From Candidatus Auribacterota bacterium (GTDB lineage Bacteria; Auribacterota; Tritonobacteria; UBA1439), in contig JAPLCX010000059.1 in the NCBI GenBank assembly GCA_026392035.1, positions 82-64,081 on the forward strand: DNA of 64,000 nt, in the 5' to 3' direction. Below the pieces are notes generated by a model. The model was not told where the DNA came from. It ran no database searches and saw only the letters and a list, made by a program, of their open reading frames with translations. Below, one piece after another: positions 1 to 12,400 of the stretch. Both the position numbers and the translations under genes were made by a program. The first letter of the stretch is position 1. Each line of letters opens with the position of its first letter.

Positions 1-405
1 AGAAAGAAAAGGCCGCATAAATAATACGTCACCGAACTTATGATCCAGAGCACTAAGTAATAGATACGAAATCCAGCAAAGTACTAAGCCATTAAGGAAA
101 AGCTGAGCCACCATGTGAGCTCCATGGTCAGGACAAAAAGGAATCAATTTTTCAAAAAAAGCCAGATAATAAAAGAGAATCGGACCGGGATGATGATGCT
201 CCCAGCGAGATGGGGGGCCAAGAAGTGCCGAGAACTTTGCAGCACGAATAACTTGAAGCCCATCTATTCCATAGTCAAAAGCCTTGTTTTTATATGTCCG
301 AAAAATGGTAATATTAAAAATAAGAAAGATAACTACCAGCAGGGTAGGAATACACCATATTGAGAGGATTCTTATAATAGAGCAACGTACTGACAAGGAT
401 TTCAT
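1..405 (-). CDS. partial CDS (the 5' part; the gene continues past the window start): integral membrane protein with a glycosyltransferase-like (ArnT/PMT-type) N-terminus
   Basis: On the minus strand there is an ATG at 403-405 and the frame stays open to position 1 with no stop, so it is missing from the ORF track. The translation begins MKSLSVRCSIIRILSIWCIPTLLVVIFLIF... It has several hydrophobic helices and the motif PGPILFYYLAFF. The region is about 35% GC while the window is about 60%. Confidence 0.4.
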   Translation of the reverse strand, partial: MKSLSVRCSIIRILSIWCIPTLLVVIFLIFNITIFRTYKNKAFDYGIDGLQVIRAAKFSALLGPPSRWEHHHPGPILFYYLAFFEKLIPFCPDHGAHMVAQLFLNGLVLCWISYLLLSALDHKFGDVLFMRPFLS

Positions 406-430
406 ATTATTAATCGGCTAACGCCATGCT

Positions 431-739
431 TCACCGGCGCGAAAACCGCCTGCGGGTTTCGCGTACGGTGGAAGCGCTTGTTCGCTGATCATCTTCATCT
501 TTGATTTGCTCCCACGGTATGCCCTTGCCCGCATGGATGCTGGCTCTCGATTCTTCAACCTTTTTCAGGAAACGAGGGTCGTTTTCCAGTCGGAAATCAA
601 ACCAGTCGTCTTCATCTTCAAATCCAATTAAAACGCCGGCCGGTTTCCCGTGCTTAGTAATAATGATTTTTTCTTTCCCCGCCTGTATTAAGTACCTCGA
701 AAAATGATCTTTGACCTTAGCTAATGCGACTTGTTTCAT
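431..739 (-). CDS. Phd/YefM-family type II antitoxin; no toxin gene adjacent
   Basis: The protein reads MKQVALAKVKDHFSRYLIQAGKEKIIITKHGKPAGVLIGFEDEDDWFDF..., which is a typical Phd/YefM fold signature. I chose the internal ATG (MKQVA) as the start; the ORF track begins 9 codons upstream. No YoeB/Doc-like ORF follows on the same strand. Confidence 0.6.
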   Translation of the reverse strand: MKQVALAKVKDHFSRYLIQAGKEKIIITKHGKPAGVLIGFEDEDDWFDFRLENDPRFLKKVEESRASIHAGKGIPWEQIKDEDDQRTSASTVRETRRRFSRR

Positions 740-835
740 GTTCGTTCTCCTTTTTCTCGCAGCCATTGTTCCGCATGGGACTTATTCACAATCCTTAGCA
801 CTACATATCCTATTCCACGGCAGAATAATATCGTG

Positions 836-905
836 GTCCGACCCCGCCACCCATCCGCGCCGGCAAGCCCAATTGTCAAGGATAAAGATTTGACCCCCAA
901 ACCTG
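836..905. repeat. partial copy of the right-hand module of the intergenic repeat family (CATCCGCGCCGG-AAGCCCAATTGTCAAGGATAAAGATTTGACCCCCAAACCT)
   Basis: It is near-identical to 5336-5396. It lies between the Phd antitoxin and the NUDIX gene. Confidence 0.5.
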
Positions 906-931
906 TTATAAGGGTTAGGCTGAATATTCAA

Positions 932-1420
932 TTAAATTTTAAGTAATTTATTTTCTATTTCTTCTCTCATCGAAATAATGTTCAACTGCTGATCATATTC
1001 AACATTGAACATAAAGTTTTTATTATCAACTAGATATTTATATATGTGCCAATCAGTTTTCGGTGCGGGAATTCCAAATAATTTTGAAAATCTGATCCAT
1101 TCAAGTTTACCTTCTTTGCAAGTAGGCGGATCAATATGCTCAATCTCGGCAAGATACACAAAACAGATCCAGTTATAATTAGTTGGTGAACTTTCAACCA
1201 TTACACCACAATATTTTGGATTTGTGATACGGATTCCAGTTTCTTCAAGTGTCTCTCGACTAGCTGAATGTATCGGACTCTCATATGGATCGATTTTTCC
1301 ACCAACCGGTGTATATTTACCTTTATTGGGTTCTTTTTTACGTTTCAACAGTAAGAAGCGGTCACCCGACTTCAAAATACACAAAACTGCTGGTTGTTTA
1401 TGTCCATTCGATACATACAT
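932..1420 (-). CDS. NUDIX hydrolase
   Basis: The Nudix box GX5EX7REUXEEXGU is present as GGKIDPYESPIHSASRETLEETGI. The protein is 162 aa. The gene is AT-rich compared with its surroundings. Confidence 0.8.
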   Translation of the reverse strand: MYVSNGHKQPAVLCILKSGDRFLLLKRKKEPNKGKYTPVGGKIDPYESPIHSASRETLEETGIRITNPKYCGVMVESSPTNYNWICFVYLAEIEHIDPPTCKEGKLEWIRFSKLFGIPAPKTDWHIYKYLVDNKNFMFNVEYDQQLNIISMREEIENKLLKI

Positions 1421-1436
1421 ATTTCAAACCATTTTC

Positions 1437-1487
1437 AGCCTAACGTCAGGAGTCAGGCGCGGGTAGCAACGTCGCCTGCACTCCTTG
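1437..1487. repeat. 51-bp imperfect inverted repeat with attC-like ends (GCCTAAC ... GTTAGGT)
   Basis: The sequence is GCCTAACGTCAGGAGTCAGGCG-CGGGTAGCAACG-TCGCCTGCACTCCTTGGTTAGGT. Its ends match the integron attC consensus RYYYAAC and GTTRRRY. The arms pair with unpaired extra bases, as attC sites do. It sits between two minus-strand cassettes. Confidence 0.35.
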
Positions 1488-1509
1488 GTTAGGTGGTTCT
1501 TCCTCGATC

Positions 1510-1929
1510 TTACTCCCGAATGCTATGTTCTTGAAAGTGCTGTCGAACTTTCGCCGCAACCTGACTATCAGTCATCTTGTCAATTGTTTCAATGCCAACG
1601 ACCCGTCCACCCAGTTTGTTTCTATCCAGACGTTTTTTCAGTTCGCCCTTGGCCTCACCGGGACCAAATATCAGAATAGATTCTGCATCACGAATACACG
1701 CAATTACCGCATCGTAGTAAATGTCGAGATGTCCCATAAACTTTCTATCGCGGATATCCCCTGCCGGTCCTTGCCGTGATCCATAGGGAGTCGTAGAACG
1801 TATATCATCAGAATGCCCGAGCTGTTTTTCAACCTTCGATATTAGCAGTTTTATCTCTTCCCCTCTGTCCGTAATCGCTACGATAAGAGCCTTCCTATGA
1901 TCAATCCACAAACCTACTTTTCTTTTCAT
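1510..1929 (-). CDS. hypothetical protein (139 aa)
   Basis: Intact ORF MKRKVGLWIDHRKALIVAITDRGEEIKLL...ILIFGPGEAKGELKKRL. I recognise no catalytic motif. It is flanked by repeat elements. Confidence 0.5.
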   Translation of the reverse strand: MKRKVGLWIDHRKALIVAITDRGEEIKLLISKVEKQLGHSDDIRSTTPYGSRQGPAGDIRDRKFMGHLDIYYDAVIACIRDAESILIFGPGEAKGELKKRLDRNKLGGRVVGIETIDKMTDSQVAAKVRQHFQEHSIRE

Positions 1930-1958
1930 AGATTTTCCTTTGTCTATTAAGTCCAGTT

Positions 1959-2097
1959 AACGACGGAATTGAGCGGCGCCCGCAGACGGGGCGGGGAGGA
2001 GCGAGCCGAAGGCTCGCGCATCCGCCCAACATAATGCTCACCCGTCGAGGGCCTAATGTCCGAAGATCTCGAGTGAAACGAGAGACCTTTGAGAAAA
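1959..2097. repeat. structured intergenic repeat, copy 1 (core plus a right module shared with 11890-11960)
   Basis: It starts AACGACGGAATTGAGCGGCG and contains the hairpin GCGAGCC-GAAG-GCTCGC inside an outer stem GGGCGG/CCGCCC. The right half matches CACCCATCGAGGGCCAATAGCCCAAAGATCTCGCGCAAAGAGAGCGACC near 11900. Confidence 0.6.
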
Positions 2098-2204
2098 CTA
2101 CAGTGCCAACCAAAAAAAACAACCACTGACGATTGCCACACCTGCGACTGCTGCTTATGCAAGTCACCGTTTCTCAGGTCGGGTGCAGCGGATAGTTTGC
2201 AGCT

Positions 2205-2501
2205 TCACTCTAGTTTGGATGGGTCAAGCAATCTAGCGCCGTGATGAATTGTAAGAAGCTCGACAAGTTCGGCGCGAAGCCGATAAACGATACGATAGCT
2301 TCCTGGGAGAATCTCACGGATAAGAGGGTCGTTCCTCTCCGGTACGATCCTTCCCAAGTTTGGGAAATTAGCAACCTGCTCAACAGCCTCAACGACGTCT
2401 GTGGCGAACAAACAAGCATAGTGTGGCGAGTCTTGCGAAATGAACTCAGTGATAGACTCCAGGTCATCGGCTGCTTGCGGAGTCCATCTCACTTCAGCCA
2501 T
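2205..2501 (-). CDS. RelE/ParE-family type II toxin
   Basis: The 98-aa protein MAEVRWTPQAADDLESITEFIS...YRIVYRL...ELLTIHHGAR has typical ParE/RelE features. Its start overlaps the upstream antitoxin gene. Confidence 0.7.
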   Translation of the reverse strand: MAEVRWTPQAADDLESITEFISQDSPHYACLFATDVVEAVEQVANFPNLGRIVPERNDPLIREILPGSYRIVYRLRAELVELLTIHHGARLLDPSKLE

Positions 2502-2671
2502 TTCGCCATCCGTTCCTTGACCTGAGCATGGGAAAGTGTCTTGCCGGCGTCAGCTTGCTGGAGCCCCCTTTCAATCTTCGAGAGAAACAGAAGACGCTCC
2601 ATCGCGTCTTCTACCGATGCATCATCTGGAAGCCCCTGCATAGCTTGGATCATCTTCTCTTTTTTCGTCAT
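2489..2671 (-). CDS. addiction-module antitoxin (ParD/RelB-like, 'putative addiction module component')
   Basis: The 60-aa protein MTKKEKMIQAMQGLPDDASVEDAMERLLFLSKIERGLQQADAGKTLSHAQVKERM overlaps the ParE gene by 13 nt, which is the classic antitoxin-toxin arrangement. Confidence 0.6.
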   Translation of the reverse strand: MTKKEKMIQAMQGLPDDASVEDAMERLLFLSKIERGLQQADAGKTLSHAQVKERMAKWLK

Positions 2672-2722
2672 ACCTGCAGCATACCTTTTTCGGTCTAGAG
2701 CGTCAACCGGCTATTCGCTGCC

Positions 2723-2826
2723 AACGACGGAATTGAGCGGCGATCCCGCCAAGGCGGGACGCGGTGAGGAGCGAGCGCATGAGCGCTCGCGCATCCGCGC
2801 CGGAAAGGCGGCAGTACCGCCCCGGG
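2723..2826. repeat. structured intergenic repeat, copy 2
   Basis: AACGACGGAATTGAGCGGCGATCCCGCCAAGGCGGGACGCGGTGAGGAGCGAGCGCATGAGCGCTCGCGCATCCGCGCCGG... The hairpin is GCGAGCGC-ATGA-GCGCTCGC. Confidence 0.65.
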
Positions 2827-2945
2827 CAAAACGTAAACTCCACCTCTTTGTTGGCCTCCTATTTCTTCTTGCTGATCAAACTTTTGTCCACATTCATCCA
2901 GATGGTAAATGAATTACCTGCTTCCATTTCTTAAGGATGTTGGCC

Positions 2946-5246
2946 CTAGGGTTGTAAATTTAGAGTCGAGAACATCGATGCTATGTCTTCGTCTTTAGTC
3001 ACTTCATCCTGACGGGATTCACTTGAAGAGAAATCGACATCGTCGTCACTTCTGGAGCTGTCTTGCTCTCGTTCATCAGCATGCTCTCTTATTGCAGCTA
3101 TATCTGCCTCGATATCGAGTTTGACAACCTTTGAAAGCGACTCCAGAGCTTCCGCCTCTTCGCGCAAGGCATCCGCATCAAGATCAGCATAGTCGGACGC
3201 GACGCTTTCAGCGACCTCCTGAATAGTGGCGGCCACTCGATCCATCTTTTCATCCGGGAAAAGTCCCGGGCGTGACTGCACGAGTCTGCACAAGGGCCGA
3301 AGGTCATCCGCCCACCGTGAGCCAACAAGCAACCCGTCGATAGCCTTTTCCATGAACGGCTCCGTCCATCTGCGGAAATCATCATCGGTAAGTGTTGTCA
3401 AGACATCGACAAGATCGGCTAGGCCGTCTCTATCGAATTCTTTTTTGGCGATGCGTGACTCAATTAGCGGAAAAGTCTCGCGTACAAATGAAAGAAGAGG
3501 TTTATGAGCATCCGCAGCGATCTCAGCAAATAGCGCGAGTCGTGACTCAATGGCATGCGGCCAGCGTTCTCTACTATCAACATTCCCTCTTCGCATGTTG
3601 ATCACGCGACACGGTTCTCCCGAAAGCAAACGGCGGAACATTTGCTCGGCCGTCTTTGAGTTGGCCTGGATAAGACCATACAGAAGCGGGCGCCGGTCAC
3701 GCCATGCCCAGAGGGAATCAAGTTGCTCGTAAAACACAACTGACAGAAACAACAAAGTGAACTCCGCATCGCTTGCCAAGAGATACTTTTTTACAAAATC
3801 AGCCACGGAGGGATTCTGAAAGCGAACCAGTATCTCCGCGCCCTCCTGATTATAAGAAAGAAAGTCACCCTCTAGCTCCTTGAGAGCGCTACGATAGTCC
3901 TGCGGCCCGATGGTTGCGGCATACTTTTTTGCATAGGCCAAGTTGTATGACTGATAAGCCTTCTCGGCGTCGCGTATGAAACACTGATGAGGCATGCTGG
4001 CCAGTACTAGCAGCAGGTTTCGGGCAGCCTGCGATAGCTGGTTGCTAAAAGCGTGTTCCCATAGGGCCAAAGGGTTTTCCATGCTGTTCATGAAGAACTC
4101 TATGTATCGAGCCGGCGGGACATCTCGGAGACGCGCGAACTCTGTCAAGAGTTGCACAATGCGGGGGCTATAGTTTCTGTGGTCAATGATCCGCAAATAG
4201 TTTTTGTCGGCCAGAATAGAGGCGCGATACTGAGTGGGCAAGGCGGAGAAGTAAATGTGGTTGAATAAGATGCGCGCCCGATTCATCCGCGTATACTTCG
4301 CAAGATCCACAATGCATTTCTGCGCGGTAAAGCCTTCTCGATTTAGTTTTTCATATTGCTGATATGCCTGCCGAAGGACGTATTCACGCGTTGTCAGAAT
4401 AAGCTTAATGCCGGTGGTCTTACGAATAGCATGAATAAAGTCGATGATACGTTGGTCTTCATTCTTGCGGAGCTTCTCCGAGAAGGATGTTTGTCCAAGA
4501 AAGTCGTCGTAGTAGAATACACGCCTTGTCTCGGGCGCCTTGAACTCCCACGCTTCAGCGATGTCTTCGCTGACCTTAATGACTTCGAAACCCGCGCGGC
4601 TATAGTGGAGAATAAGCATCTCCGCAAGGATGGTCTTTCCGATTCCAGGGATTCCGGCAATGATGCAGAAGTTGTCATGCTCGAGAATGTGGGCGGCTTC
4701 ATCAAAGCTCTCATTCTGAACATATAGCTTCGCATGCTCGCGAATTCTGTCCAACTCATGATTTGAGAAGTTCCTGACGGCCGCGTGGAGTACTTCTTCA
4801 AGCAGAGGAAGGCTAAATAACCACAGCTTGATTGTCTTACGTTCGACCTGCTCGAACTTACCGAGCAGATTGTTTAGATCGTCCTTGCCATAGACGTCAT
4901 CGGCGCATTTGATGAAAGGGTGAAGTGCCCGAACGATTTCGTCCTTCTTGGCCGGGTTCAATGGCACGGACGTAGCCACAATGTAACGCTCGGGCTTGAT
5001 CCGAGCCAGTTTAGGTAGTTCGTTGGTCGCTAGAACATGCAGAAGTGCATCGTAGCCCGATTCAACGTAGTGCTTACACTGGACGATCAGGTTGTTCTTG
5101 GCGTTGCGGGAATGACGGAAGTCTATGCCGCCGTCTCTGCCAGTGGTGAAAGACTGAAGTGTAAGGCCGAGTTCCTCCTGCAGTAGATCTCGAACGACTA
5201 CCTCAAAGTCAACTGGTGATAAGGTTCTGAAATCGTAGTTTGGCAT
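2946..5246 (-). CDS. Mrr-like PD-(D/E)xK nuclease domain fused to a STAND (NB-ARC/AP-ATPase-like) P-loop NTPase with a helical C-terminal region; candidate antiviral STAND (Avs-like) protein
   Basis: The true start is the ATG at 5246 (MPNYDFRTL...). The ORF-track N-terminus (MGFSGADARTLRAFAPPRVPPW...) is read-through into the upstream repeat. The N-terminal domain matches the Mrr catalytic fold: FEVVVRDLL...TGRDGGIDFR...IVQCKHY. Walker A is GIPGIGKT and Walker B is VFYYDDFLGQT. A sensor-1-like motif LILTTRE follows. About 450 aa of helical sequence lies downstream. The protein is 767 aa. Confidence 0.75.
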   Translation of the reverse strand: MPNYDFRTLSPVDFEVVVRDLLQEELGLTLQSFTTGRDGGIDFRHSRNAKNNLIVQCKHYVESGYDALLHVLATNELPKLARIKPERYIVATSVPLNPAKKDEIVRALHPFIKCADDVYGKDDLNNLLGKFEQVERKTIKLWLFSLPLLEEVLHAAVRNFSNHELDRIREHAKLYVQNESFDEAAHILEHDNFCIIAGIPGIGKTILAEMLILHYSRAGFEVIKVSEDIAEAWEFKAPETRRVFYYDDFLGQTSFSEKLRKNEDQRIIDFIHAIRKTTGIKLILTTREYVLRQAYQQYEKLNREGFTAQKCIVDLAKYTRMNRARILFNHIYFSALPTQYRASILADKNYLRIIDHRNYSPRIVQLLTEFARLRDVPPARYIEFFMNSMENPLALWEHAFSNQLSQAARNLLLVLASMPHQCFIRDAEKAYQSYNLAYAKKYAATIGPQDYRSALKELEGDFLSYNQEGAEILVRFQNPSVADFVKKYLLASDAEFTLLFLSVVFYEQLDSLWAWRDRRPLLYGLIQANSKTAEQMFRRLLSGEPCRVINMRRGNVDSRERWPHAIESRLALFAEIAADAHKPLLSFVRETFPLIESRIAKKEFDRDGLADLVDVLTTLTDDDFRRWTEPFMEKAIDGLLVGSRWADDLRPLCRLVQSRPGLFPDEKMDRVAATIQEVAESVASDYADLDADALREEAEALESLSKVVKLDIEADIAAIREHADEREQDSSRSDDDVDFSSSESRQDEVTKDEDIASMFSTLNLQP

Positions 5247-5262
5247 CTCTTTTCCCGTGGCC

Positions 5263-5396
5263 AACAACGGAATTGAGCGGCGATCCCGCCAAGGCGGGAC
5301 GCGGGGAGGAGCGAACGCCCGAAGCGTTCGCGCATCCGCGCCGGAAAAGCCCAATTGTCAAGGATAAAGATTTGACCCCCAAACCTCCCGTATGTC
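5263..5396. repeat. structured intergenic repeat, copy 3
   Basis: AACAACGGAATTGAGCGGCGATCCCGCCAAGGCGGGACGCGGGGAGGAGCGAACGCCCGAAGCGTTCGCGCATCCGCGCCGG, followed by the AAGCCCAATTGTCAAGGATAAAGATTTGACCCCCAAACCT module. The hairpin GCGAACGC-CCGAA-GCGTTCGC carries compensatory changes relative to copy 2. Confidence 0.65.
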
Positions 5397-5469
5397 CCGA
5401 TCCAGGTGATGAACTCTATATGATTGTCGCAAAATCGGCTTTTCTCATCTTTTACGCCCAACGTTGCTT

Positions 5470-6474
5470 TCACCGGCGGCGCGCTAGCGGCGTCCGGTGG
5501 AAGGCATGGTTGGGACGTTTTTCCATCGTCTTCCGAATCTGATACTTCACCTCAGGCTCATGCACGGCAGGGAACTCATCCATCCACGACAAATCCTTCC
5601 CAATAACCAATTCCTCCATTGTCGCATGATGCGTATTTCTCATGGGAATAAGACGCATTTGAAACCCATGTCTTCGGGCCATTGTCTTGACTTCTTCCGC
5701 GTTATCGTAGGTTATCAAGAAATCACCCCTCAACGACTCGCACACCGTAAACAATCGCTCATGGTCGATCTCGCAGTGGGTGTACAACCGCCTCCCAGCT
5801 TTCTTTCCACCAGCCGTATATGGAGGATCTATGAAATAGACTGCATGGCGGTTCGCTGCAAACTCCTGAATGACTTTTAACCCGTCATCACATCGGAAAT
5901 CAATTCTCGTTGCAACGTGGTTGAGGTCCGAGAGCCTCCTGGCGAGCGTCGCCGGGTACCAGCGAGAACGGATACCTTTCCCGTTCTCTCCGTACTTAAT
6001 GAATCCGGAACCATTGGCAAGAATTCCTCCATGGAGCGTTCGATTCTTAAGAATCGTCTGAAACGCTTTCTCTCGTCTTGTCTTCGGAGTTCTCGATAGT
6101 TCCTGTACAACGGATTCCTTGTTCAGGTCGAACGCAAGGATATGATTGGCCAGCCAGCCCGCGTCGCCATTGACCACCGTTTCCCATACTGCTGCGATTT
6201 CGTCGTCCAATTCGACCATCACTGCTTTCTGCACAAGATTCTCAAAGACAGCCGTAAGGCTGATAATTCCACCGCCAGCGAACGGCTCGACTAATATGCC
6301 AGGCTTCGAATACATGCGCGCGATCCAGTGCCGAAACGTTGGCACAAACCATGTCTTGCCGCCGGGGTAGCGGAAGGGGCTTCGTTGCGGGACCGATGCT
6401 ACATTGACCGGCCTCAGTGCTTCTATTTCTTCACGGAGCTCAGGGAATAAGAGGGATTGCTTGGGGATAGCCAT
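5470..6474 (-). CDS. DNA adenine (N6) methyltransferase, Dam / D12-class
   Basis: It carries FRYPGGK (motif I region) and the catalytic FIDPPY (DPPY). The protein is 334 aa. It ends 2 bp before the start of the endonuclease ORF. The C-terminal approximately 20 aa may be read-through toward the repeat. Confidence 0.8.
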   Translation of the reverse strand: MAIPKQSLLFPELREEIEALRPVNVASVPQRSPFRYPGGKTWFVPTFRHWIARMYSKPGILVEPFAGGGIISLTAVFENLVQKAVMVELDDEIAAVWETVVNGDAGWLANHILAFDLNKESVVQELSRTPKTRREKAFQTILKNRTLHGGILANGSGFIKYGENGKGIRSRWYPATLARRLSDLNHVATRIDFRCDDGLKVIQEFAANRHAVYFIDPPYTAGGKKAGRRLYTHCEIDHERLFTVCESLRGDFLITYDNAEEVKTMARRHGFQMRLIPMRNTHHATMEELVIGKDLSWMDEFPAVHEPEVKYQIRKTMEKRPNHAFHRTPLARRR

Positions 6475-6475
6475 G

Positions 6476-7384
6476 TCAGAATGGCCTCTCGATAGTCTTG
6501 TTTACGGGTGGAGTTTCGATCTGTTCATCCAGCTTTTCCTGAAGCAGTTTCACGAAGTCGTTGATCTTCCCTGGCGCGGGAGTTGTGATAGACATCAAGG
6601 CTGGCTCGAATTGGGTGAACACTTCATCGATCTTGGTTAGCTTGAGCCTCTCTTGTCCGCCTTCCTTGGTAATCTTGAGGTCGTAGATCAGCCAGGCAAT
6701 TTCGGCTTTTGATTTGCTCACCTTTGCCAACGGGGGGAGTGTCTCAAAAAAGCTCTTGTTCAAGGCGACAGCGGTCTTCTTCTGCCAGGAATGCAGAATC
6801 CCGCCCTTGAAGAGAAGTTGTGGTGCCAGGCGTTTACGGGAAGATGAAAGATAGTCCGGGCGCGGATAGTTCGGTTGGGTTGACCAATCCATTTGTGCGT
6901 GCGTCTTCGGGTTCTTCATATAGTACTCAAAGGGATCGCGCACGTTGCCGGATATGTAAACAGCCTGAACCTCGAGGGCGCCGAAGTCGAAGACCTTACC
7001 ATTCTCGTCGTAAGCGACGAGGACAACGTCAATGTTACCGGCTGACTTTCCATGCACATCGTTAAGTCTCACTTCTGTCAAGGAACTCCACCGGGTGCCA
7101 TCGTCAAAGAAAAAGGATGCGGCATCGTCAGCGATGAGCCAGTCTTCGCGGAACCGTATCGGGCATGTTATCACGGTACTTCTCTCGTGCAAGACACTAC
7201 ACACGCCGAGAGGATTCTTGGCCTTGTCTTTCGTGCAGTTTGGCACTTTGTTGTTGAAGGGACACAGACGCCGAGACCGGTATCTGTCTGCCTTGGCCGA
7301 GTGATCGGTCAAGAGATGGCCAAAGACCTCTGCAAGTGGTTGTACGGGTTCTTTCATAGTTTCTCTCAATTCACTGCTTTCCAT
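6476..7384 (-). CDS. type II restriction endonuclease, NotI-family fold (PD-(D/E)xK with an N-terminal Cys4 metal-binding region)
   Basis: The region AEVFGHLL...CPFNNKVPNC...GVCSV...CPIRF...GALEVQAVYISGN...LLFKGGILHSWQKK is similar to NotI (AEFFGH...CPF...GVCVV...CP.R...GVLEIQTMDFHGS...FKRTFYQMAYKF). This comparison is from memory. The start is uncertain: ATG at 7384 (MESSEL) or 7357 (MKEPVQ). The ORF-track N-terminus is repeat read-through. Confidence 0.6.
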   Translation of the reverse strand: MESSELRETMKEPVQPLAEVFGHLLTDHSAKADRYRSRRLCPFNNKVPNCTKDKAKNPLGVCSVLHERSTVITCPIRFREDWLIADDAASFFFDDGTRWSSLTEVRLNDVHGKSAGNIDVVLVAYDENGKVFDFGALEVQAVYISGNVRDPFEYYMKNPKTHAQMDWSTQPNYPRPDYLSSSRKRLAPQLLFKGGILHSWQKKTAVALNKSFFETLPPLAKVSKSKAEIAWLIYDLKITKEGGQERLKLTKIDEVFTQFEPALMSITTPAPGKINDFVKLLQEKLDEQIETPPVNKTIERPF

Positions 7385-7457
7385 AGGAGGATCATACTGA
7401 ATTCGTAACTCCTTTTCAACCTCAACTCCCCCTACCTTCGGGATTCTCCCTTGTCCC

Positions 7458-7577
7458 AACGATGGAATTGAGCGGCGCTCCCGCCAAGGCGGGACGCGGG
7501 GAGGAGCGAACGCGAGCGCGCGCGCATCCGCGCCGCCGGGCGCGGACAACACATGATAGCCGCTCAATTCCTTCGTT
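7458..7577. repeat. structured intergenic repeat, copy 4 (complete element with terminal inverted repeats)
   Basis: The left arm is AACGATGGAATTGAGCGGCG and the right arm is GCCGCTCAATTCCTTCGTT. That gives a 19-bp inverted repeat with one mismatch, ending AAC...GTT. The internal hairpin is GCGAACGC-GAGC-GCGCGCGC. It lies immediately 3' of brnA. Confidence 0.65.
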
Positions 7578-7583
7578 CGCTGA

Positions 7584-7784
7584 TTACTCTATCGCTTCTG
7601 CAAGACGCTTGTCTGACTTGATTAGGTCATTGACGACGGAAGATAAGTCAGAATCCTTGCGCTCTGCAATTCTCTGCACGAACGAAAGATTCTCCCGATC
7701 TAGATAGACAGGCAGATTGAACTTTGCGTTTGCCCTGTAGAACTTGCCCCGCTGACCCTTGGAAAAATCGTATTCTTTCTTCAT
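7584..7784 (-). CDS. brnA: BrnA-type antitoxin (RHH-like, DUF4415-like)
   Basis: The 66-aa protein MKKEYDFSKGQRGKFYRANAKFNLPVYLD... follows BrnT by 4 nt. Confidence 0.65.
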   Translation of the reverse strand: MKKEYDFSKGQRGKFYRANAKFNLPVYLDRENLSFVQRIAERKDSDLSSVVNDLIKSDKRLAEAIE

Positions 7785-7787
7785 GTT

Positions 7788-8078
7788 CTACTCCTCATAG
7801 TGCTTCGTTTCTCTTTTTGTGGCCTTCCGGCTGGAAATTATCCGAATCCTCACCATCAGGTCATCAAGCTGGTCGTAGGTGTGATGAACAACTAGCAAGG
7901 CGCCTGTCGCAGAAATGCCAAGAGTGAGCCAGCGTTCCTCTGATTCGCCATGTTCAGAATCGAACACAGATATGGCTTTCGGGTCTCTGAACACCGTCGA
8001 GGCCAGTTCGAAGCTCACTTTGTGCTTGCGCTTGTTAGCTCTGGCCTTCTCGGGATCCCATTCGAAGTTATAGCGCAT
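7788..8078 (-). CDS. brnT: BrnT-type ribonuclease toxin (DUF497)
   Basis: MRYNFEWDPEKARANKRKHKVSFELASTVFRDP matches the DUF497/BrnT signature FEWD...K...N..KH.V.FEEA..VF.DP. Confidence 0.7.
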   Translation of the reverse strand: MRYNFEWDPEKARANKRKHKVSFELASTVFRDPKAISVFDSEHGESEERWLTLGISATGALLVVHHTYDQLDDLMVRIRIISSRKATKRETKHYEE

Positions 8079-8169
8079 TCCACCTCTCCCGATTGTAACA
8101 AGCTCTCTTCATGATAAGGCATGCCGACAGTTGGATCAATATTTCATTTTTAGCGCCGCGAACGACGGA

Positions 8170-8290
8170 ATTGAGCGGCAATCCCGCTAAGCAGGACGCG
8201 GGAAAAGAGCGAGCGCCCGGAGCGCTCGCGCATCCGCGCCGGCAAGGCGGCAGTCCCGCCCTGCGGGAGCGCCCGCTCGAATGACTTGTT
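8170..8290. repeat. structured intergenic repeat, copy 5 (degenerate right arm)
   Basis: AACGACGGAATTGAGCGGCAATCCCGCTAAGCAGGACGCGGGAAAAGAGCGAGCGCCCGGAGCGCTCGCGCATCCGCGCCGG...GCCCGCTCGAATGACTTGTTCGC. The hairpin is GCGAGCGC-CCGGA-GCGCTCGC. GCCGCGAAC occurs at both flanks. Confidence 0.6.
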
Positions 8291-8745
8291 CGCACCGCAT
8301 TTACGCCGCGAACAGCTATTTCCCAGTTCATATATTTTAGCCGAAAAATGGCCTGATGTAATCAAGACAATTCACGAATATTCCGGATAAGGAGAGATGA
8401 AAACAGGTAATTCTACTCTATCTGGGGTAGATGATTTCGGAGAGTGCGGAGTCGGCTTGATGCGTAGGAATAGTATAGAGGAGAGAAAGGGAGCGGCGGC
8501 CGGAGCTTATTCACAGCCGTACTCAATCACCCTCACCCTGACCCTCCCTTCGGCAGGCGAATTTATCCTGAGCGAAGCCGAAGGAGGGCAAGCTCCCCGT
8601 CAGGAGGGGGAGGGGATAAGAAGAAAGAAAAAAAACGGGGGGATGGCACTGCGACGTCCCCCCGCCGCGATCAGGCCCCAGCCCGGCGAAGCCAACATAG
8701 GACAGGCGTGGCCGGCTCCACTAAACGCATGGTGAGGTTGTTGAT

Positions 8746-9231
8746 TTATTCCTTTTTGTAATCCTTTTTGTGATGCTTGGGGGCAACAAATTCCCCTTGC
8801 GGATTGACGCGGACATCGATCTTTGCTTTGTCCTGAAGCATTTTCACTTTGTACACAATCTGATCGCCTTTGATTTTCTTTTCTGCCGATACGATGACAC
8901 AGCCAGCATACTTCGTGGTGACTGCCTGGGACACCTTCGACGGCAGGTCGCTTGGTTTCAGCTCTTCCTCAATTTCCAATAAGTCCCCCTGTGCCGAGTA
9001 TTCCACGTTTCGATGTGTCGAGCCATCAATTGACTCTATCTCGTACGATGTTTTCCCACGGTGTTGCTCCGTTGAGTAGTTTTTCACCGTTGCGTTCGGA
9101 TACGCCTTCTCAAACGCTGCGATGACGGCGGAGGGGACATCAGCCTTCTTGATCGTTTGCTCTTCAGCCGATATCGCCACCGTGAGTGCTACGAGAAACA
9201 GACATGTAAGAACAGCCAATGCGCATCTCAT
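8746..9231 (-). CDS. PepSY-like (DUF2874-type) periplasmic/lipoprotein with a signal peptide
   Basis: The start is at MRCALAVLTCLFLVALTVAISA, a signal peptide. Two PepSY-like repeats are present: VPSAVIAAFEKAYPNATVKNYS...YEIE and LPSKVSQAVTTKYAGCVIVSAEKKIKGDQIVYKVKM. Confidence 0.55.
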   Translation of the reverse strand: MRCALAVLTCLFLVALTVAISAEEQTIKKADVPSAVIAAFEKAYPNATVKNYSTEQHRGKTSYEIESIDGSTHRNVEYSAQGDLLEIEEELKPSDLPSKVSQAVTTKYAGCVIVSAEKKIKGDQIVYKVKMLQDKAKIDVRVNPQGEFVAPKHHKKDYKKE

Positions 9232-9346
9232 GATTCGTCCTCCCCTGGTTGTTTTCTGCCGTGTGACACGGTGCTGCCGCATCGTCAGCGGCACGGAAAT
9301 ACCGAAATTGGCTCGCGGAGCCTGTCAGTCGCGTGTACCTCGCTTG

Positions 9347-10552
9347 TCACTTCAGTGTGATCTCTCGCCCACTCTTGATGACGTGCAACGGGGCTTCGTG
9401 GTTCCAGATGGCTTCCCAGACGCTCTCCGCATTCAGGACGACGAGGTCGGCTTTGTTTCCTTCCTTGAGCCCGAACTCCTTTATCCCGAGCGCTTGGGCG
9501 GCGCGCGTGGTGATCAGGTCATAGAGAATCTCCATGTCCTGAACGGTTATCATCCACATCAGGTGGGCCGCGAGGAATGCCACTTCGAGCATGTTGTTCC
9601 GGCCGAACGGATAATACGCGTCCGCGATGTCATCCTGGCCCAGCGCGATTCCCACACCGGCATTGTAGAGATCACGCACCCGGGCGTGCAGCGGGCCCGT
9701 CTGCGGATCGCTCACGACGCCGACTCGCGCCTTCTTGAGCAGCGCTTCGATCTTTCTATAGTACGGCTCGGGATAGAGCGCCATTGCGCGGGCGTGCTGA
9801 GCCGTCACACGACCTTCCCATCCATCCTTAATCGTTCTCAGGATGAGCATCTCGAGTGTGCGCAGTCCGGGATCGCCCGCGTCATCAACCAGCATGGAGA
9901 CGCCCTTGTTGTATTCCCTTGCAAGGGCGAACATCTGGTCAATGTGCGTCTGGGAATCCGCCTCGGTATACTCGATCCAGGGGATGCCGCCGACGACGTC
10001 CGCCCCAAGATCCATCGCCTGCCTGACATAATCTTCAGCCCCGGGGTCTCTCACCACGCCGTCCTGGGGGAAAGCGACGACCTGGATTTCAACCTGGTTC
10101 TTGAACTCCTCTCTCGCCCTGAGCAGCGCCTTGACGCCTTCCAGCTTTGCCTTGGTATCCGTGTCCGCGAACGCGCGGATGTGCGTGTTGCCGAACTTGA
10201 TCGCCAGTTTCACGGCTTTGCGGACATTCTCGATGATCCATTTCTCATTATATTGGGCTTTCACACTGGCGGCCTGCTCGATGGCGGTCATCGCGCCGCC
10301 CATCGCCCCGGCGGTGTAGGAGCTGAGGGCGTCCATTCCCACCATCGACAGCGTGTACACCTTGCAGAGGTGCAGATGCCCGTTGATGAATGACTCGGTG
10401 ACAAGCTTCCCGCCCGCATCAATCTTTTTCTTTGCGTCCGCGCCGAGTTTCTGGCCGATCTTGAGGATCCGTCCATCCTTGATTCCAATATCCAGCACTT
10501 TCCCCTTTGAAAACCGCGTGCGCGCATTCTTGATGCGCAGGTCAAACTTCAT
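9347..10552 (-). CDS. amidohydrolase-superfamily deaminase (cytosine deaminase-like)
   Basis: The metal-binding motif HxH is present as ESFINGHLHLCK. The length and the C-terminal ADLVVLNAESV match the amidohydrolase_1 / CodA-like family. The start is at MKFDLRIKNA. Confidence 0.6.
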   Translation of the reverse strand: MKFDLRIKNARTRFSKGKVLDIGIKDGRILKIGQKLGADAKKKIDAGGKLVTESFINGHLHLCKVYTLSMVGMDALSSYTAGAMGGAMTAIEQAASVKAQYNEKWIIENVRKAVKLAIKFGNTHIRAFADTDTKAKLEGVKALLRAREEFKNQVEIQVVAFPQDGVVRDPGAEDYVRQAMDLGADVVGGIPWIEYTEADSQTHIDQMFALAREYNKGVSMLVDDAGDPGLRTLEMLILRTIKDGWEGRVTAQHARAMALYPEPYYRKIEALLKKARVGVVSDPQTGPLHARVRDLYNAGVGIALGQDDIADAYYPFGRNNMLEVAFLAAHLMWMITVQDMEILYDLITTRAAQALGIKEFGLKEGNKADLVVLNAESVWEAIWNHEAPLHVIKSGREITLK

Positions 10553-10651
10553 TGTGGTCTCCTTTTCTGTAGCTGCCTGTTGCAACAGGTTTCTAAAGAG
10601 CTTTTCTACGCTATATTTATGTAGAGCCCCAGTATATACGGGTTAGGCAAT

Positions 10652-10858
10652 TTAATTCCTTAGATAAAATGGCAAAAGCATCAATGCTATTCCAATTGTA
10701 ATAACCAGGATCGTATTGGATATAAAATATTGATACGCACAGAGCGCTACACCGCAGATGAGCGCAACGGCTTGTTGCTGTTTTTTGCCATAGACAATAT
10801 ACCCCATGCCGATGGCGCTGAATATGACTGCAAGAAGGATATTTGTTGTTGAATCCAT
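10652..10858 (-). CDS. small membrane protein (two predicted TM helices)
   Basis: The 68-aa hydrophobic ORF reads LLAVIFSAIGMGYIVYG...ILVITIGIALMLLPFY. Confidence 0.4.
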   Translation of the reverse strand: MDSTTNILLAVIFSAIGMGYIVYGKKQQQAVALICGVALCAYQYFISNTILVITIGIALMLLPFYLRN

Positions 10859-10864
10859 TAGTGA

Positions 10865-11137
10865 TTATATGCCTATGCCGCTCAAGGCGTCTATCACTCG
10901 CCCCACGGCGAGCGTCAGCGGAAGGTGTGATTCTTCGAAATGCCGGGCAGATTCCCTGAGCCGCTCGAGGAACTGCTGGTGTCGATGCGATGGAATCTCT
11001 CCATGTTCCTCAATAAGCGCCTCGATCTCGTTCAGCACGCTCTGGATGCGCGCTCGAACGCGGGCATCGATTGATGGTGTGTTTTCGAGTTCTGCGCGGA
11101 GTTCTTGAATTGTTTCATGAAGCTGTCGTTCCTTCAT
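10865..11137 (-). CDS. hypothetical protein (DUF4404-like, 90 aa)
   Basis: Intact ORF with a helical, charged sequence. The family assignment is from memory only. Confidence 0.4.
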   Translation of the reverse strand: MKERQLHETIQELRAELENTPSIDARVRARIQSVLNEIEALIEEHGEIPSHRHQQFLERLRESARHFEESHLPLTLAVGRVIDALSGIGI

Positions 11138-11233
11138 AATGTTTTTCCTTTCTTAATTCGGTTTCTGGCAGGAGATTATTTGATGATATTAGTAAGCTGC
11201 AATCGTACAAAGTCCTAATGTGTTGCGTCGCGA

Positions 11234-11674
11234 TCACTCTCCTATCTCAAGTCTGAAGGCTACAAGTGTCTGATTCACGTCTTTGATAAAAGCGATGAGA
11301 GATACTATTAACGACAACATGCATCCGATAAAAAGGGCAATGATCAGCCACGCACCTTCACATTGGAGCAGCACGATGAAAAACAGCATGATGATCAGGA
11401 CCGCGGCCAGGAGCAGGCTGATCGAGGCGAGCATGATGGACAGCCGGATTAGGCGCGCTCTTTTCGATAGTATTTTAAGCTGGGCGTGAATAGCTTCCCG
11501 ATGTGCGCCAGGCACCTCGCGAAGTTCTCGCCACAGGAACCTTGAGCGGTCGACGACTCGCCCAAGGCGGTTTGTCATGGTGAGGAGAAGGAGTGCCACT
11601 CCCGAAACGAGAATAACCGGGCCGATTGCTGTCTGAAGGATCGGTATGAATTCACTGACAGAGATATTTGTCAT
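11234..11674 (-). CDS. membrane protein (DUF2721-like)
   Basis: The start is MTNISVSEFIPILQTAIGPVILVSGVALLL... Two hydrophobic blocks flank RLGRVVDRSRFLWREL, which is the pattern seen in DUF2721. Confidence 0.45.
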   Translation of the reverse strand: MTNISVSEFIPILQTAIGPVILVSGVALLLLTMTNRLGRVVDRSRFLWRELREVPGAHREAIHAQLKILSKRARLIRLSIMLASISLLLAAVLIIMLFFIVLLQCEGAWLIIALFIGCMLSLIVSLIAFIKDVNQTLVAFRLEIGE

Positions 11675-11757
11675 ATATACTCCCTCCACGGCATCAGGTA
11701 ATGTCAAAAGATATTGTAAAGCAACCACAGATTTCTCTGATTATTTACGCCTTTTCC

Positions 11758-11898
11758 GAGTAAATCAGTGGTGATTCATCTGTGGTAACATCCGTATAAT
11801 TAAGCCGCTGTATAGAAATTCTTTTCTTTCTCCATTTACCACAGATTTATTCACCACAGATTGGCGCAAACTTCCTCCCCCCCCCAAAAAATCTTCAC
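11758..11898. repeat. 141-bp repeat A; a perfect inverse-orientation copy lies at 48916-49056. It contains several ACCACAGAT motifs, a TATAAT hexamer and a C9 homopolymer.
   Basis: GAGTAAATCAGTGGTGATTCATCTGTGGTAACATCCGTATAATTAAGCCGC...TTTACCACAGATTTATTCACCACAGATTGGCGCAAACTTCCTCCCCCCCCCAAAAAATCTTCAC is identical to the reverse complement of 48916-49056. An extra CAACCACAGATT motif lies at 11723. Confidence 0.8.
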
Positions 11899-11977
11899 CA
11901 TCACGCAAGACTCACCCATCGAGGGCCAATAGCCCAAAGATCTCGCGCAAAGAGAGCGACCCGGCGTCAGATGTTTC

Positions 11978-12400
11978 TCAAGTCGGGTGCTGCACGGGGT
12001 CAGGTCGAGGGCGTACTATTCTAACGAATAACGGCAAAGATTTTTCGGATTTGCCGTCTATAGCCAGGTCTATTGAATACTGGCCCGCTTTTTCGATCTT
12101 GAAATTATGAATGTTTAAAATTAAATTGCTCACCACATAGTGCTGTTCTTCTTTAAATTTAATCTCCACGTTAGCGTTAAGACTCGGGAGAATAGGCTTT
12201 CCATCTTCATCGACGAAGTTGATTTTTATTCTATGTCCTCCCTCTTCTATTTGGCTGAATCGTATTCTCAGTGCGACTGAACACTGAGGATGTATCACGG
12301 GGAACTTCTGGGCATACAGGCAGTCAAATGCGCCTAATATATTGAGTTTTCCGCCGGTTTCCGTAGCCGCATCACAAAGGGCGAAGACTTCTATATCCAT
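11978..12400 (-). CDS. hypothetical protein (140 aa)
   Basis: Intact ORF MDIEVFALCDAATETGGKLNILGAFDCLYA... with no recognisable motif. Confidence 0.45.
   Translation of the reverse strand: MDIEVFALCDAATETGGKLNILGAFDCLYAQKFPVIHPQCSVALRIRFSQIEEGGHRIKINFVDEDGKPILPSLNANVEIKFKEEQHYVVSNLILNIHNFKIEKAGQYSIDLAIDGKSEKSLPLFVRIVRPRPDPVQHPT

Follow-up and report, generated by a model that had tools for sequence, protein, structure and literature searches.

Most of the characterised Avs families bind phage proteins directly, and the tripartite STAND architecture with a nuclease effector has so far been linked to immunity. In one survey (Lee et al. 2026, PMC13581612), 589 STAND clades are described, along with at least 90 sensor families associated with defence, and Mrr was among the seed effectors; the combination of Mrr_cat with nSTAND3 is not mentioned in its text. 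The NTPase of Avs5 (AVAST type 5), a SIR2-STAND protein, is reported to carry the Pfam domain nSTAND3. In EfAvs5 a SIR2 domain is followed by nucleotide-binding, helical and winged-helix domains and by a short sensor at the C-terminus; the protein depends on its Walker motifs and on the arginine of its TTR motif, and is activated by filamentation, which is triggered by T7 gp1.7, a nucleotide kinase. EfAvs5 is also modulated by ATP levels, and PaAvs5 senses an early jumbo-phage protein. SAMD9 clusters with the Avs5 sensors, and Avs6 and Avs9 are further SAMD9-like families. An N-terminal PD-(D/E)xK-type nuclease on a STAND scaffold is found in Avs4 and SeAvs7, and the Cap4 nuclease of SeAvs7 is described as autoinhibited in the apo protein and as a tetramer in the activated complex (PMC13581612). 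In this study, we analysed a gene at positions 2946-5246 (minus strand) of a stretch of 64,000 nucleotides from a Candidatus Auribacterota bacterium (assembly GCA_026392035.1, contig JAPLCX010000059.1, positions 82 to 64,081), which is called the window below. The gene encodes an Mrr-type nuclease fused to a STAND NTPase and a helical C-terminal region, and it is probably an antiviral STAND (Avs-like) defence gene that works alone, through a single protein. Its family, Mrr_cat + nSTAND3, is indexed in PADLOC as the candidate PDC-S73.

An earlier note on this DNA, made from the letters alone, had proposed a three-part protein with a nuclease effector, a STAND NTPase and a helical sensor, and this architecture was borne out by Pfam searches, an AlphaFold2 model and Foldseek. 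The features of the gene are listed as follows.

2946..5246, minus strand: complete coding sequence, 766 aa plus stop (open reading frame list, translation and NCBI identity)
4962..5246, minus strand: Mrr-type PD-(D/E)xK nuclease domain, residues 1-95, the predicted effector (Pfam Mrr_cat)
4725..4961, minus strand: helical linker from the nuclease to the NTPase, residues 96-174 (model helices 98-173)
4242..4724, minus strand: nSTAND3-type nucleotide-binding domain, residues 175-335 (Pfam PF20720)
4632-4655, minus strand: Walker A, GIPGIGKT (motif position verified)
4503-4520, minus strand: Walker B, VFYYDD (motif position verified)
4386-4394, minus strand: TTR sensor arginine, in LILTTR (motif position verified)
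3813..4241, minus strand: helical and winged-helix domains, residues 336-478, completing the STAND oligomerisation module
3060..3812, minus strand: variable HEAT/ARM-like alpha-solenoid, residues 479-729, the predicted sensor
2949..3059, minus strand: acidic linker modelled with low confidence, then a conserved amphipathic motif at the C-terminus, residues 730-766

All of the motifs quoted in the earlier note (DGGIDFR...IVQCKHY, GIPGIGKT, VFYYDD and TTR) were located at verified coordinates, and the predicted catalytic D42...Q56-C-K58 of the Mrr domain lies at 5073-5123. In the Pfam scan Mrr_cat matched residues 7-60 (E 1.9e-7) and nSTAND3 (PF20720) matched residues 175-333 over its entire profile (positions 1-155 of 155, E 5.2e-52); the remaining Pfam matches were weak and belonged to generic P-loop families only, and NCBIfam gave no significant match to the protein. 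The middle domain had been read as a STAND NTPase, which agrees with the nSTAND3 match and with the helical and winged-helix domains behind it. Walker A, a Walker B of the form hhhhDD and a sensor arginine in the TT/SR motif are all present, the nucleotide-binding domain is followed by helical and winged-helix domains (together the NOD module), an arrangement that sets STAND proteins apart from plain AAA+ proteins, and an N-terminal effector (Mrr_cat) is combined with C-terminal superstructure-forming repeats (the HEAT/ARM-like solenoid). An assignment to the bNACHT/NACHT clade was rejected, as no NACHT Pfam match was obtained and nSTAND3 was the best match by far, NPHP3_N (E 0.001) falling under the cut-off. 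The C-terminus is helical, as had been noted, but the extent of about 450 aa of helical repeats was too large: residues ~336-478 belong to the NTPase module, as its helical and winged-helix domains, and the repeat-like sensor proper is about 290 aa long (residues 479-766), with one beta-hairpin (residues 548-561) in the solenoid.

The start of the gene was placed by comparison with homologues. The longest open reading frame (ORF) reading covers 2946..5354 on the minus strand and gives 802 aa from a TTG, and the ATG at 5246 gives 766 aa and a stop, thus 767 codons. Homologue N-termini begin with MPxYDF, and M1 is kept in at least 90% of them, so that on the evidence of the alignments the ATG at 5246 is the true start codon of the Mrr-STAND gene. 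The length of 767 aa given previously is therefore correct as a codon count and includes the stop, the protein itself being 766 aa long. The N-terminal extension of the longest reading is indeed a product of the upstream repeat (read-through of the copy at 5250-5350), as the earlier note had it, and amounts to 36 aa rather than 35. The protein is 100% identical to NCBI MCX6339342.1, which is annotated as 'restriction endonuclease' in a Candidatus Auribacterota metagenome-assembled genome. Promoter and terminator scans around the gene gave counts no higher than the shuffled expectation.

A full-length AlphaFold2 model built with 55 homologues reached a pLDDT of 84.8 and a pTM of 0.77. In this model an N-terminal alpha/beta nuclease domain is connected through a helical linker to a P-loop domain with five strands. 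Helical and winged-helix domains come next, the latter with a beta-hairpin at 463-476, and they are followed by an all-helical C-terminal domain, by an acidic, disordered stretch at 731-748 (pLDDT <50) and by a last short helix at 752-762. Foldseek, which had been suggested as a check, was run with this model against the PDB and returned, in order, EfAvs5 (9jap, 833 aa), Avs4 (8dgf), the Avs5 filament (9nc9), human SAMD9 and Apaf-1, with RPP1 at rank 10 behind an ORC/Cdc6 chain.

The protein shares the nSTAND3 type of NTPase with Avs5, but it has Mrr_cat in place of the N-terminal SIR2 NADase effector, with no SIR2 match, and lacks both an Avs5/SAMD9-like sensor and a match to the Avs5 sequence model. 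Its size is close to that of Avs5 (766 aa, compared with 833 aa in EfAvs5, 9jap, and 767-769 aa in the filament, 9nc9). The claim that it is far shorter than the described families thus fails, because nSTAND3-bearing Avs5 proteins are 768-833 aa long in the solved structures, and the compact size is unremarkable. Avs4 (8dgf) and SeAvs7 resemble the window protein in carrying an N-terminal PD-(D/E)xK-type nuclease on a STAND scaffold, but they are about twice as long (the Avs4 chain has 1,534-1,540 aa) and have large TPR sensors; the window protein has no match to the PADLOC Avs4 model, and the NTPases of both are of a different clade. EcAvs4 reportedly carries an Mrr-like nuclease (attributed to Gao et al. 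2022), and we know of no nSTAND3 assignment for the NTPases of Avs4 and SeAvs7. The Mrr domain and the helical linker form an N-terminal module of about 195 aa that is also present in other PADLOC families: it is shared with Aga_TIR-PNTD1-PNTD2 (residues 3-197, E 1.3e-38, and in 63 of 63 relatives) and with Aga_REase-TIR-PNTD1-PNTD2 (E 2.5e-26). Both Aga models match the N-terminal 140-197 residues only, and their TIR and PNTD domains are without counterpart in the window protein; we take these Aga_TIR and Aga_REase-TIR families to be, probably, effectors associated with short prokaryotic Argonautes.

The closest match was found with PADLOC, a search that the earlier note had also suggested: the known candidate PDC-S73 (HMM PDLC05079) was matched with E 1.7e-159 and 531 bits over residues 1-526 and profile positions 1-524 of 752. 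The last 240 aa of the protein were not aligned to the profile (positions 525-752), because the sensor has diverged. PDC-S73 is a single-gene system in PADLOC, and the window protein shows no difference from it that would define another family. Among 63 diverse relatives with 31-39% identity to the window protein, PDC-S73 and nSTAND3 were each detected in all 63 and Mrr_cat in 60. A word-indexed search recovered 2,125 relatives, the best 120 of which are nearly all 760-785 aa long with Mrr_cat and nSTAND3 and come from bacteria and the archaeon Methanothrix. An exhaustive HMMER search, with residues 170-766 only as the query, of 1.84 billion cluster representatives (50% identity) gave 3,300 matches at E<=1e-3 and 1,830 at E<=1e-30; the best 150 are almost all 750-790 aa long with the NTPase beginning at about residue 170-175. 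The family thus comprises at least 1,830 representative clusters at 50% identity. Other effectors (SIR2 or TIR) on the same scaffold were looked for in the best 150 matches and the 63 sampled relatives, and none was seen within the reach of these searches. A scan of one genome per species yielded 49 loci of the family in Melainabacteria, Patescibacteria, Planctomycetes, Actinomycetota, Bacteroidota, Pseudomonadota, Bacillota, Campylobacterota and Verrucomicrobiota, and overall the distribution is patchy and very broad, with many bacterial phyla and archaea. The proposal of a candidate novel STAND effector is therefore not upheld, as the protein falls into PDC-S73 and into the Pfam pair Mrr_cat + nSTAND3 with its at least 1,830 clusters; judged by sequence, it is an ordinary member of a huge, catalogued candidate family. 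As for an already named subfamily, it is named as the candidate PDC-S73, and it belongs to no experimentally named Avs or bNACHT type, as far as could be checked. Some family ORFs in genomes are longer, 920-1151 aa (Asaia, Tenacibaculum, Paenibacillus and Clostridium), among loci L018, L030, L049, L054, L031 and L057 and L016, L034, L047, L048 and L056; others in this set are short (235-490 aa) and may be pseudogenes or assembly breaks.

Conservation was analysed as well. Across the 63 relatives the invariant residues include D38, G40, D42, Q56 and K58 in the nuclease, G198, G201, G203 and K204 (Walker A), D247 and D248 (Walker B) and T285 in the NTPase, and P361-R362; T286 and R287 of the TTR motif are kept in at least 90%. 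Along the protein, conservation is 0.71 in the Mrr domain, 0.75 in the NTPase, 0.63 in the helical domain, 0.57 in the winged helix and ~0.42 in the C-terminal solenoid. The alignment ends at about residue 490-555 in many relatives and in all plasmid and phage-collection matches, and with the query of residues 170-766 many relatives align over residues 172-515 only. This pattern fits a diversifying sensor on a conserved effector-and-switch chassis, as would be expected. The extreme C-terminus differs from the rest of the sensor: F759 is kept in at least 90% of the 63 relatives even where the sensor is not alignable, and 43 of 63 carry a motif of the general form DxxIxxxFxxL, which reads D-x-x-I-x-S-M-F-S-T-L in the window protein. 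The 30 residues ahead of the motif contain 32% D+E vs 15% over the whole proteins, and the acidic linker and C-terminal motif together may be an autoinhibitory or docking tail.

The gene lies, as had been observed, in a toxin-antitoxin and restriction-modification island between two repeat copies (2710-2810 and 5250-5350). Downstream of it are a ParE toxin and an antitoxin-like ORF; upstream are a D12 N6-adenine methyltransferase and a NotI-family endonuclease, then BrnT. Seven other family contexts, fetched by exact-protein look-up, contain PIN, HEPN/MNT and ParE toxin-antitoxin pairs, TIR, AAA_13 ATPases, type I restriction-modification, OLD-type nucleases, and integrase and resolvase genes, and the contexts overall are, in qualitative terms, rich in restriction-modification, toxin-antitoxin, OLD/PARIS-type ATPases and integrases. 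In a nearest-neighbour survey of 146 ORFs at the 49 loci no Pfam or PADLOC family occurred more than 2 times, and therefore there is no conserved partner gene and the family gene works alone. Defence genes among these neighbours include RhuM/PDC-S05, PDC-S02, AriA, SIR2, McrBC, Type ISP, DpnI and DarT. An AAA_13/AAA_23 ATPase was considered as a partner, being just upstream in 2 of the first 3 contexts, and was rejected as not recurrent among the 146 neighbour ORFs. ABC-type ATPases, some of them AAA_13/AAA_23 proteins (~830-855 aa) and others OLD-type AAA_15+TOPRIM proteins, directly adjoin the family gene in several unrelated loci, at L003/L004 (3386-5869), L005 (3392-5959), L006 (9449-11141) and L008 (4072-5973); their position probably reflects co-residence in defence islands, because AAA_15/AAA_21 was found only twice among the 146 neighbours. 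Family members were present on 52 plasmids, of which 29 are conjugative, and in three records of the phage collection; one of these is Clostridium phage HM T, and the other two are 'Bacteriophage sp.' contigs without annotation that come from human faecal samples. The plasmid copies include those of Pseudomonas fluorescens (NZ_OP918264.1), Agrobacterium tumefaciens (NZ_CP048577.1) and Bacillus thuringiensis (NZ_CP094625.1), and Pseudomonas fontis ID656 has a copy on its chromosome. The copy in Clostridium phage HM T (KU517658.1, 10223-11755) is annotated as 'restriction endonuclease' and has 26% identity over residues 4-514, and therefore the family gene is also phage-borne.

The order of nuclease, NTPase and sensor had been taken to follow Avs logic, and the domains, the folds and the stand-alone gene support this. 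The invariant catalytic and nucleotide-binding residues, the fall in conservation towards the sensor, the membership in PDC-S73 (the PADLOC candidates were drawn from genes that lie inside known defence systems), the mobile, defence-rich contexts and the patchy, very broad distribution also speak for a defence gene, and the filamentation of EfAvs5 and the nuclease tetramer of SeAvs7 are mechanistic precedents. In the model that we infer, which extends to the defence function itself, its trigger, the form of the oligomer and the choice of DNA as substrate, the protein of the uninfected cell would be a closed, autoinhibited monomer. The variable C-terminal HEAT-like solenoid would bind an infection cue, most likely a phage protein, and binding would free the NOD module; the freed module would take ATP via K204, D247/D248 and R287 and then oligomerise, by which the N-terminal Mrr PD-(D/E)xK domains (D42, Q56 and K58) would be joined into an active nuclease. 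This nuclease would degrade DNA indiscriminately, and the infection would be aborted. The oligomer may be a tetramer, as reported for SeAvs7, or a filament, as in Avs5.

Several results weigh against this explanation. phmmer and a 55-sequence profile gave nothing significant against all PDB sequences, so that the link to Avs5, Avs4 and nucleotide-binding leucine-rich repeat (NLR) proteins is by fold only, and none of the PADLOC Avs models matched the window protein. EfAvs5 binds ATP without hydrolysis, and the hydrolysis and oligomeric state of the window protein are not predictable. Housekeeping genes are also present among the 146 neighbours, where the defence association was judged qualitatively. 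PDC-S73 is among the 145 'phage defence candidates' of PADLOC (Payne et al., bioRxiv 10.1101/2024.01.29.577857), which are explicitly untested. The literature searched contained nothing relevant on PDC-S73 or PNTD1, no experiments on any PDC-S73 family member, and no validation, trigger or structure for the family.

Three other explanations were weighed. The first keeps the same Avs-like chassis and changes only the signal, which would be an indirect cue such as a disturbance of the nucleotide pool, an infection-altered host factor (guard-type) or a nucleic-acid structure. The nearest relatives by NTPase type are atypical in this respect (gp1.7 and ATP levels in EfAvs5, an early jumbo-phage protein in PaAvs5), the sensor, at ~290 aa, is short beside the TPR sensors found in those Avs families that detect structural proteins of phages, and the conserved acidic tail could be a regulatory element. 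We consider an indirect cue unlikely, however, as this analysis produced no positive evidence for it and direct binding of phage proteins prevails among the characterised Avs families. The second explanation is an NTP-regulated Mrr restriction enzyme (Type IV-like), which would read foreign or modified DNA directly and sense no phage protein, the NTPase and helical domains serving to control the nuclease or to place it. E. coli Mrr and Type IV restriction endonucleases have the same Mrr_cat domain with the D...QxK motif, RefSeq/GenBank annotate family members as 'restriction endonuclease', and restriction-modification systems adjoin the gene in the window and at several other loci. In the window protein, however, Mrr_cat forms the N-terminal part of a fusion with a STAND NTPase, the Pfam scan detected neither the N-terminal DNA-binding domain of Mrr nor any other domain for DNA recognition, and the NTPase is a STAND NOD with a winged helix rather than a translocase, a helicase or a McrB-type GTPase; the hypervariable C-terminal solenoid also suits the sensing of proteins or ligands better than that of a fixed DNA modification. 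A restriction enzyme is thus quite improbable. The third explanation, a selfish or addiction module, or a weapon between mobile elements, kept on plasmids and in cassette arrays and not primarily anti-phage, draws on the frequent conjugative plasmids, the toxin-antitoxin cassettes of the repeat-delimited array and several truncated genomic copies, but is very improbable given that the tripartite STAND protein with a nuclease effector has an association with immunity so far and that the gene encodes no antitoxin-like partner.

The two repeat copies that enclose the Mrr-STAND gene are listed below.

5250..5386, plus strand: upstream repeat copy and adjoining 40-nt module, the source of the spurious 36-aa extension
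2710..2810, plus strand: downstream repeat copy, between the STAND gene and the ParE toxin-antitoxin cassette

They belong to a longer array at 1960-8250 of the window, in which one structured repeat of ~95-100 nt recurs at the borders of all the co-oriented cassettes. The cassettes hold a 139-aa ORF, ParE with its antitoxin, the Mrr-STAND gene, the methyltransferase with the NotI-like endonuclease, and BrnT/BrnA. The repeat core ACGGAATTGAGCGG is located at 1963, 2727, 5267, 7462 and 8165 and, as a partial copy in inverted orientation, at 7560 (6 matches vs 0.6 expected by chance), and is also present on 17 other metagenome contigs. The repeat folds into a conserved 13-pair hairpin, with one covarying pair, and a small second hairpin. 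A contig designated L067 contains seven co-oriented repeat copies in 200-8300, spaced 0.9-1.8 kb apart, with Gp49/HTH, MNT/HepT, BrnT, Phd/YoeB, SPFH and NADAR-like genes in the cassettes between them. A 40-nt exact duplicate, AAGCCCAATTGTCAAGGATAAAGATTTGACCCCCAAACCT, lies at 865-904, between a Phd-like antitoxin gene and a NUDIX gene, and at 5347-5386, where it adjoins the upstream repeat copy of the STAND gene. In L067, several repeat copies are preceded by a similar GGGGTCAAATCT...TTGACAATTGGGC module. The co-oriented cassette layout resembles that of a sedentary integron. GTT is found near the 3' end of the repeat in 9 of 12 copies (the attC core is GTTRRRY). An attC reading is not supported by the canonical criteria, as the repeats have neither an end-to-end hairpin nor a complementary R'' box and depart from the canonical attC form; among the ORFs listed or scanned no integrase was evident beside either array, and nothing in 1-12000 of the window, the repeats included, matched an Rfam family.

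Within the island, the NotI-family endonuclease (Pfam E 2.3e-62) is paired with the D12-class N6-adenine methyltransferase at 5470-7567; its start probably lies further downstream, because the ORF opens inside a repeat copy and the Pfam match begins at residue 92. The 139-aa ORF (1510-1929, minus strand) is without Pfam match, as is a 60-aa ORF at 2489-2671 on the minus strand, which overlaps the start of the ParE gene and is probably its antitoxin. The GC content is 0.42-0.53 across the island (1-9000) vs 0.55-0.63 in most of 14000-64000, and the GC skew has the opposite sign, a shift that is consistent with the region 1-9000 being horizontally acquired or otherwise distinct. No tRNA genes were found in the window.

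These observations can be joined with the favoured antiviral explanation in a more specific reading, which is unlikely as a whole. PDC-S73 would be a distinct Avs family with a short HEAT-like sensor for a trigger class new to Avs; the conserved acidic linker and the Phi-x-x-Phi-F-x-x-L helix would inhibit the Mrr nuclease or the NOD from within the molecule, by mimicking DNA or by docking, until released on activation; and in this lineage the gene would travel as a cassette, by non-integron exchange, in an array without an integron integrase.

Taken alone, the window gene adds little: it is typical of its very large family, for which Pfam (Mrr_cat + nSTAND3) and PADLOC (PDC-S73) already have entries. 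The family is worth testing, being abundant, compact (~766 aa) and present in bacteria, archaea, plasmids and at least one named phage. Its characterisation would convert one of the 145 candidates of PADLOC into a characterised system, and it could show whether nuclease effectors on nSTAND3 scaffolds assemble into filaments, like the SIR2 effectors of Avs5, or into tetramers, the form reported for the SeAvs7 nuclease.

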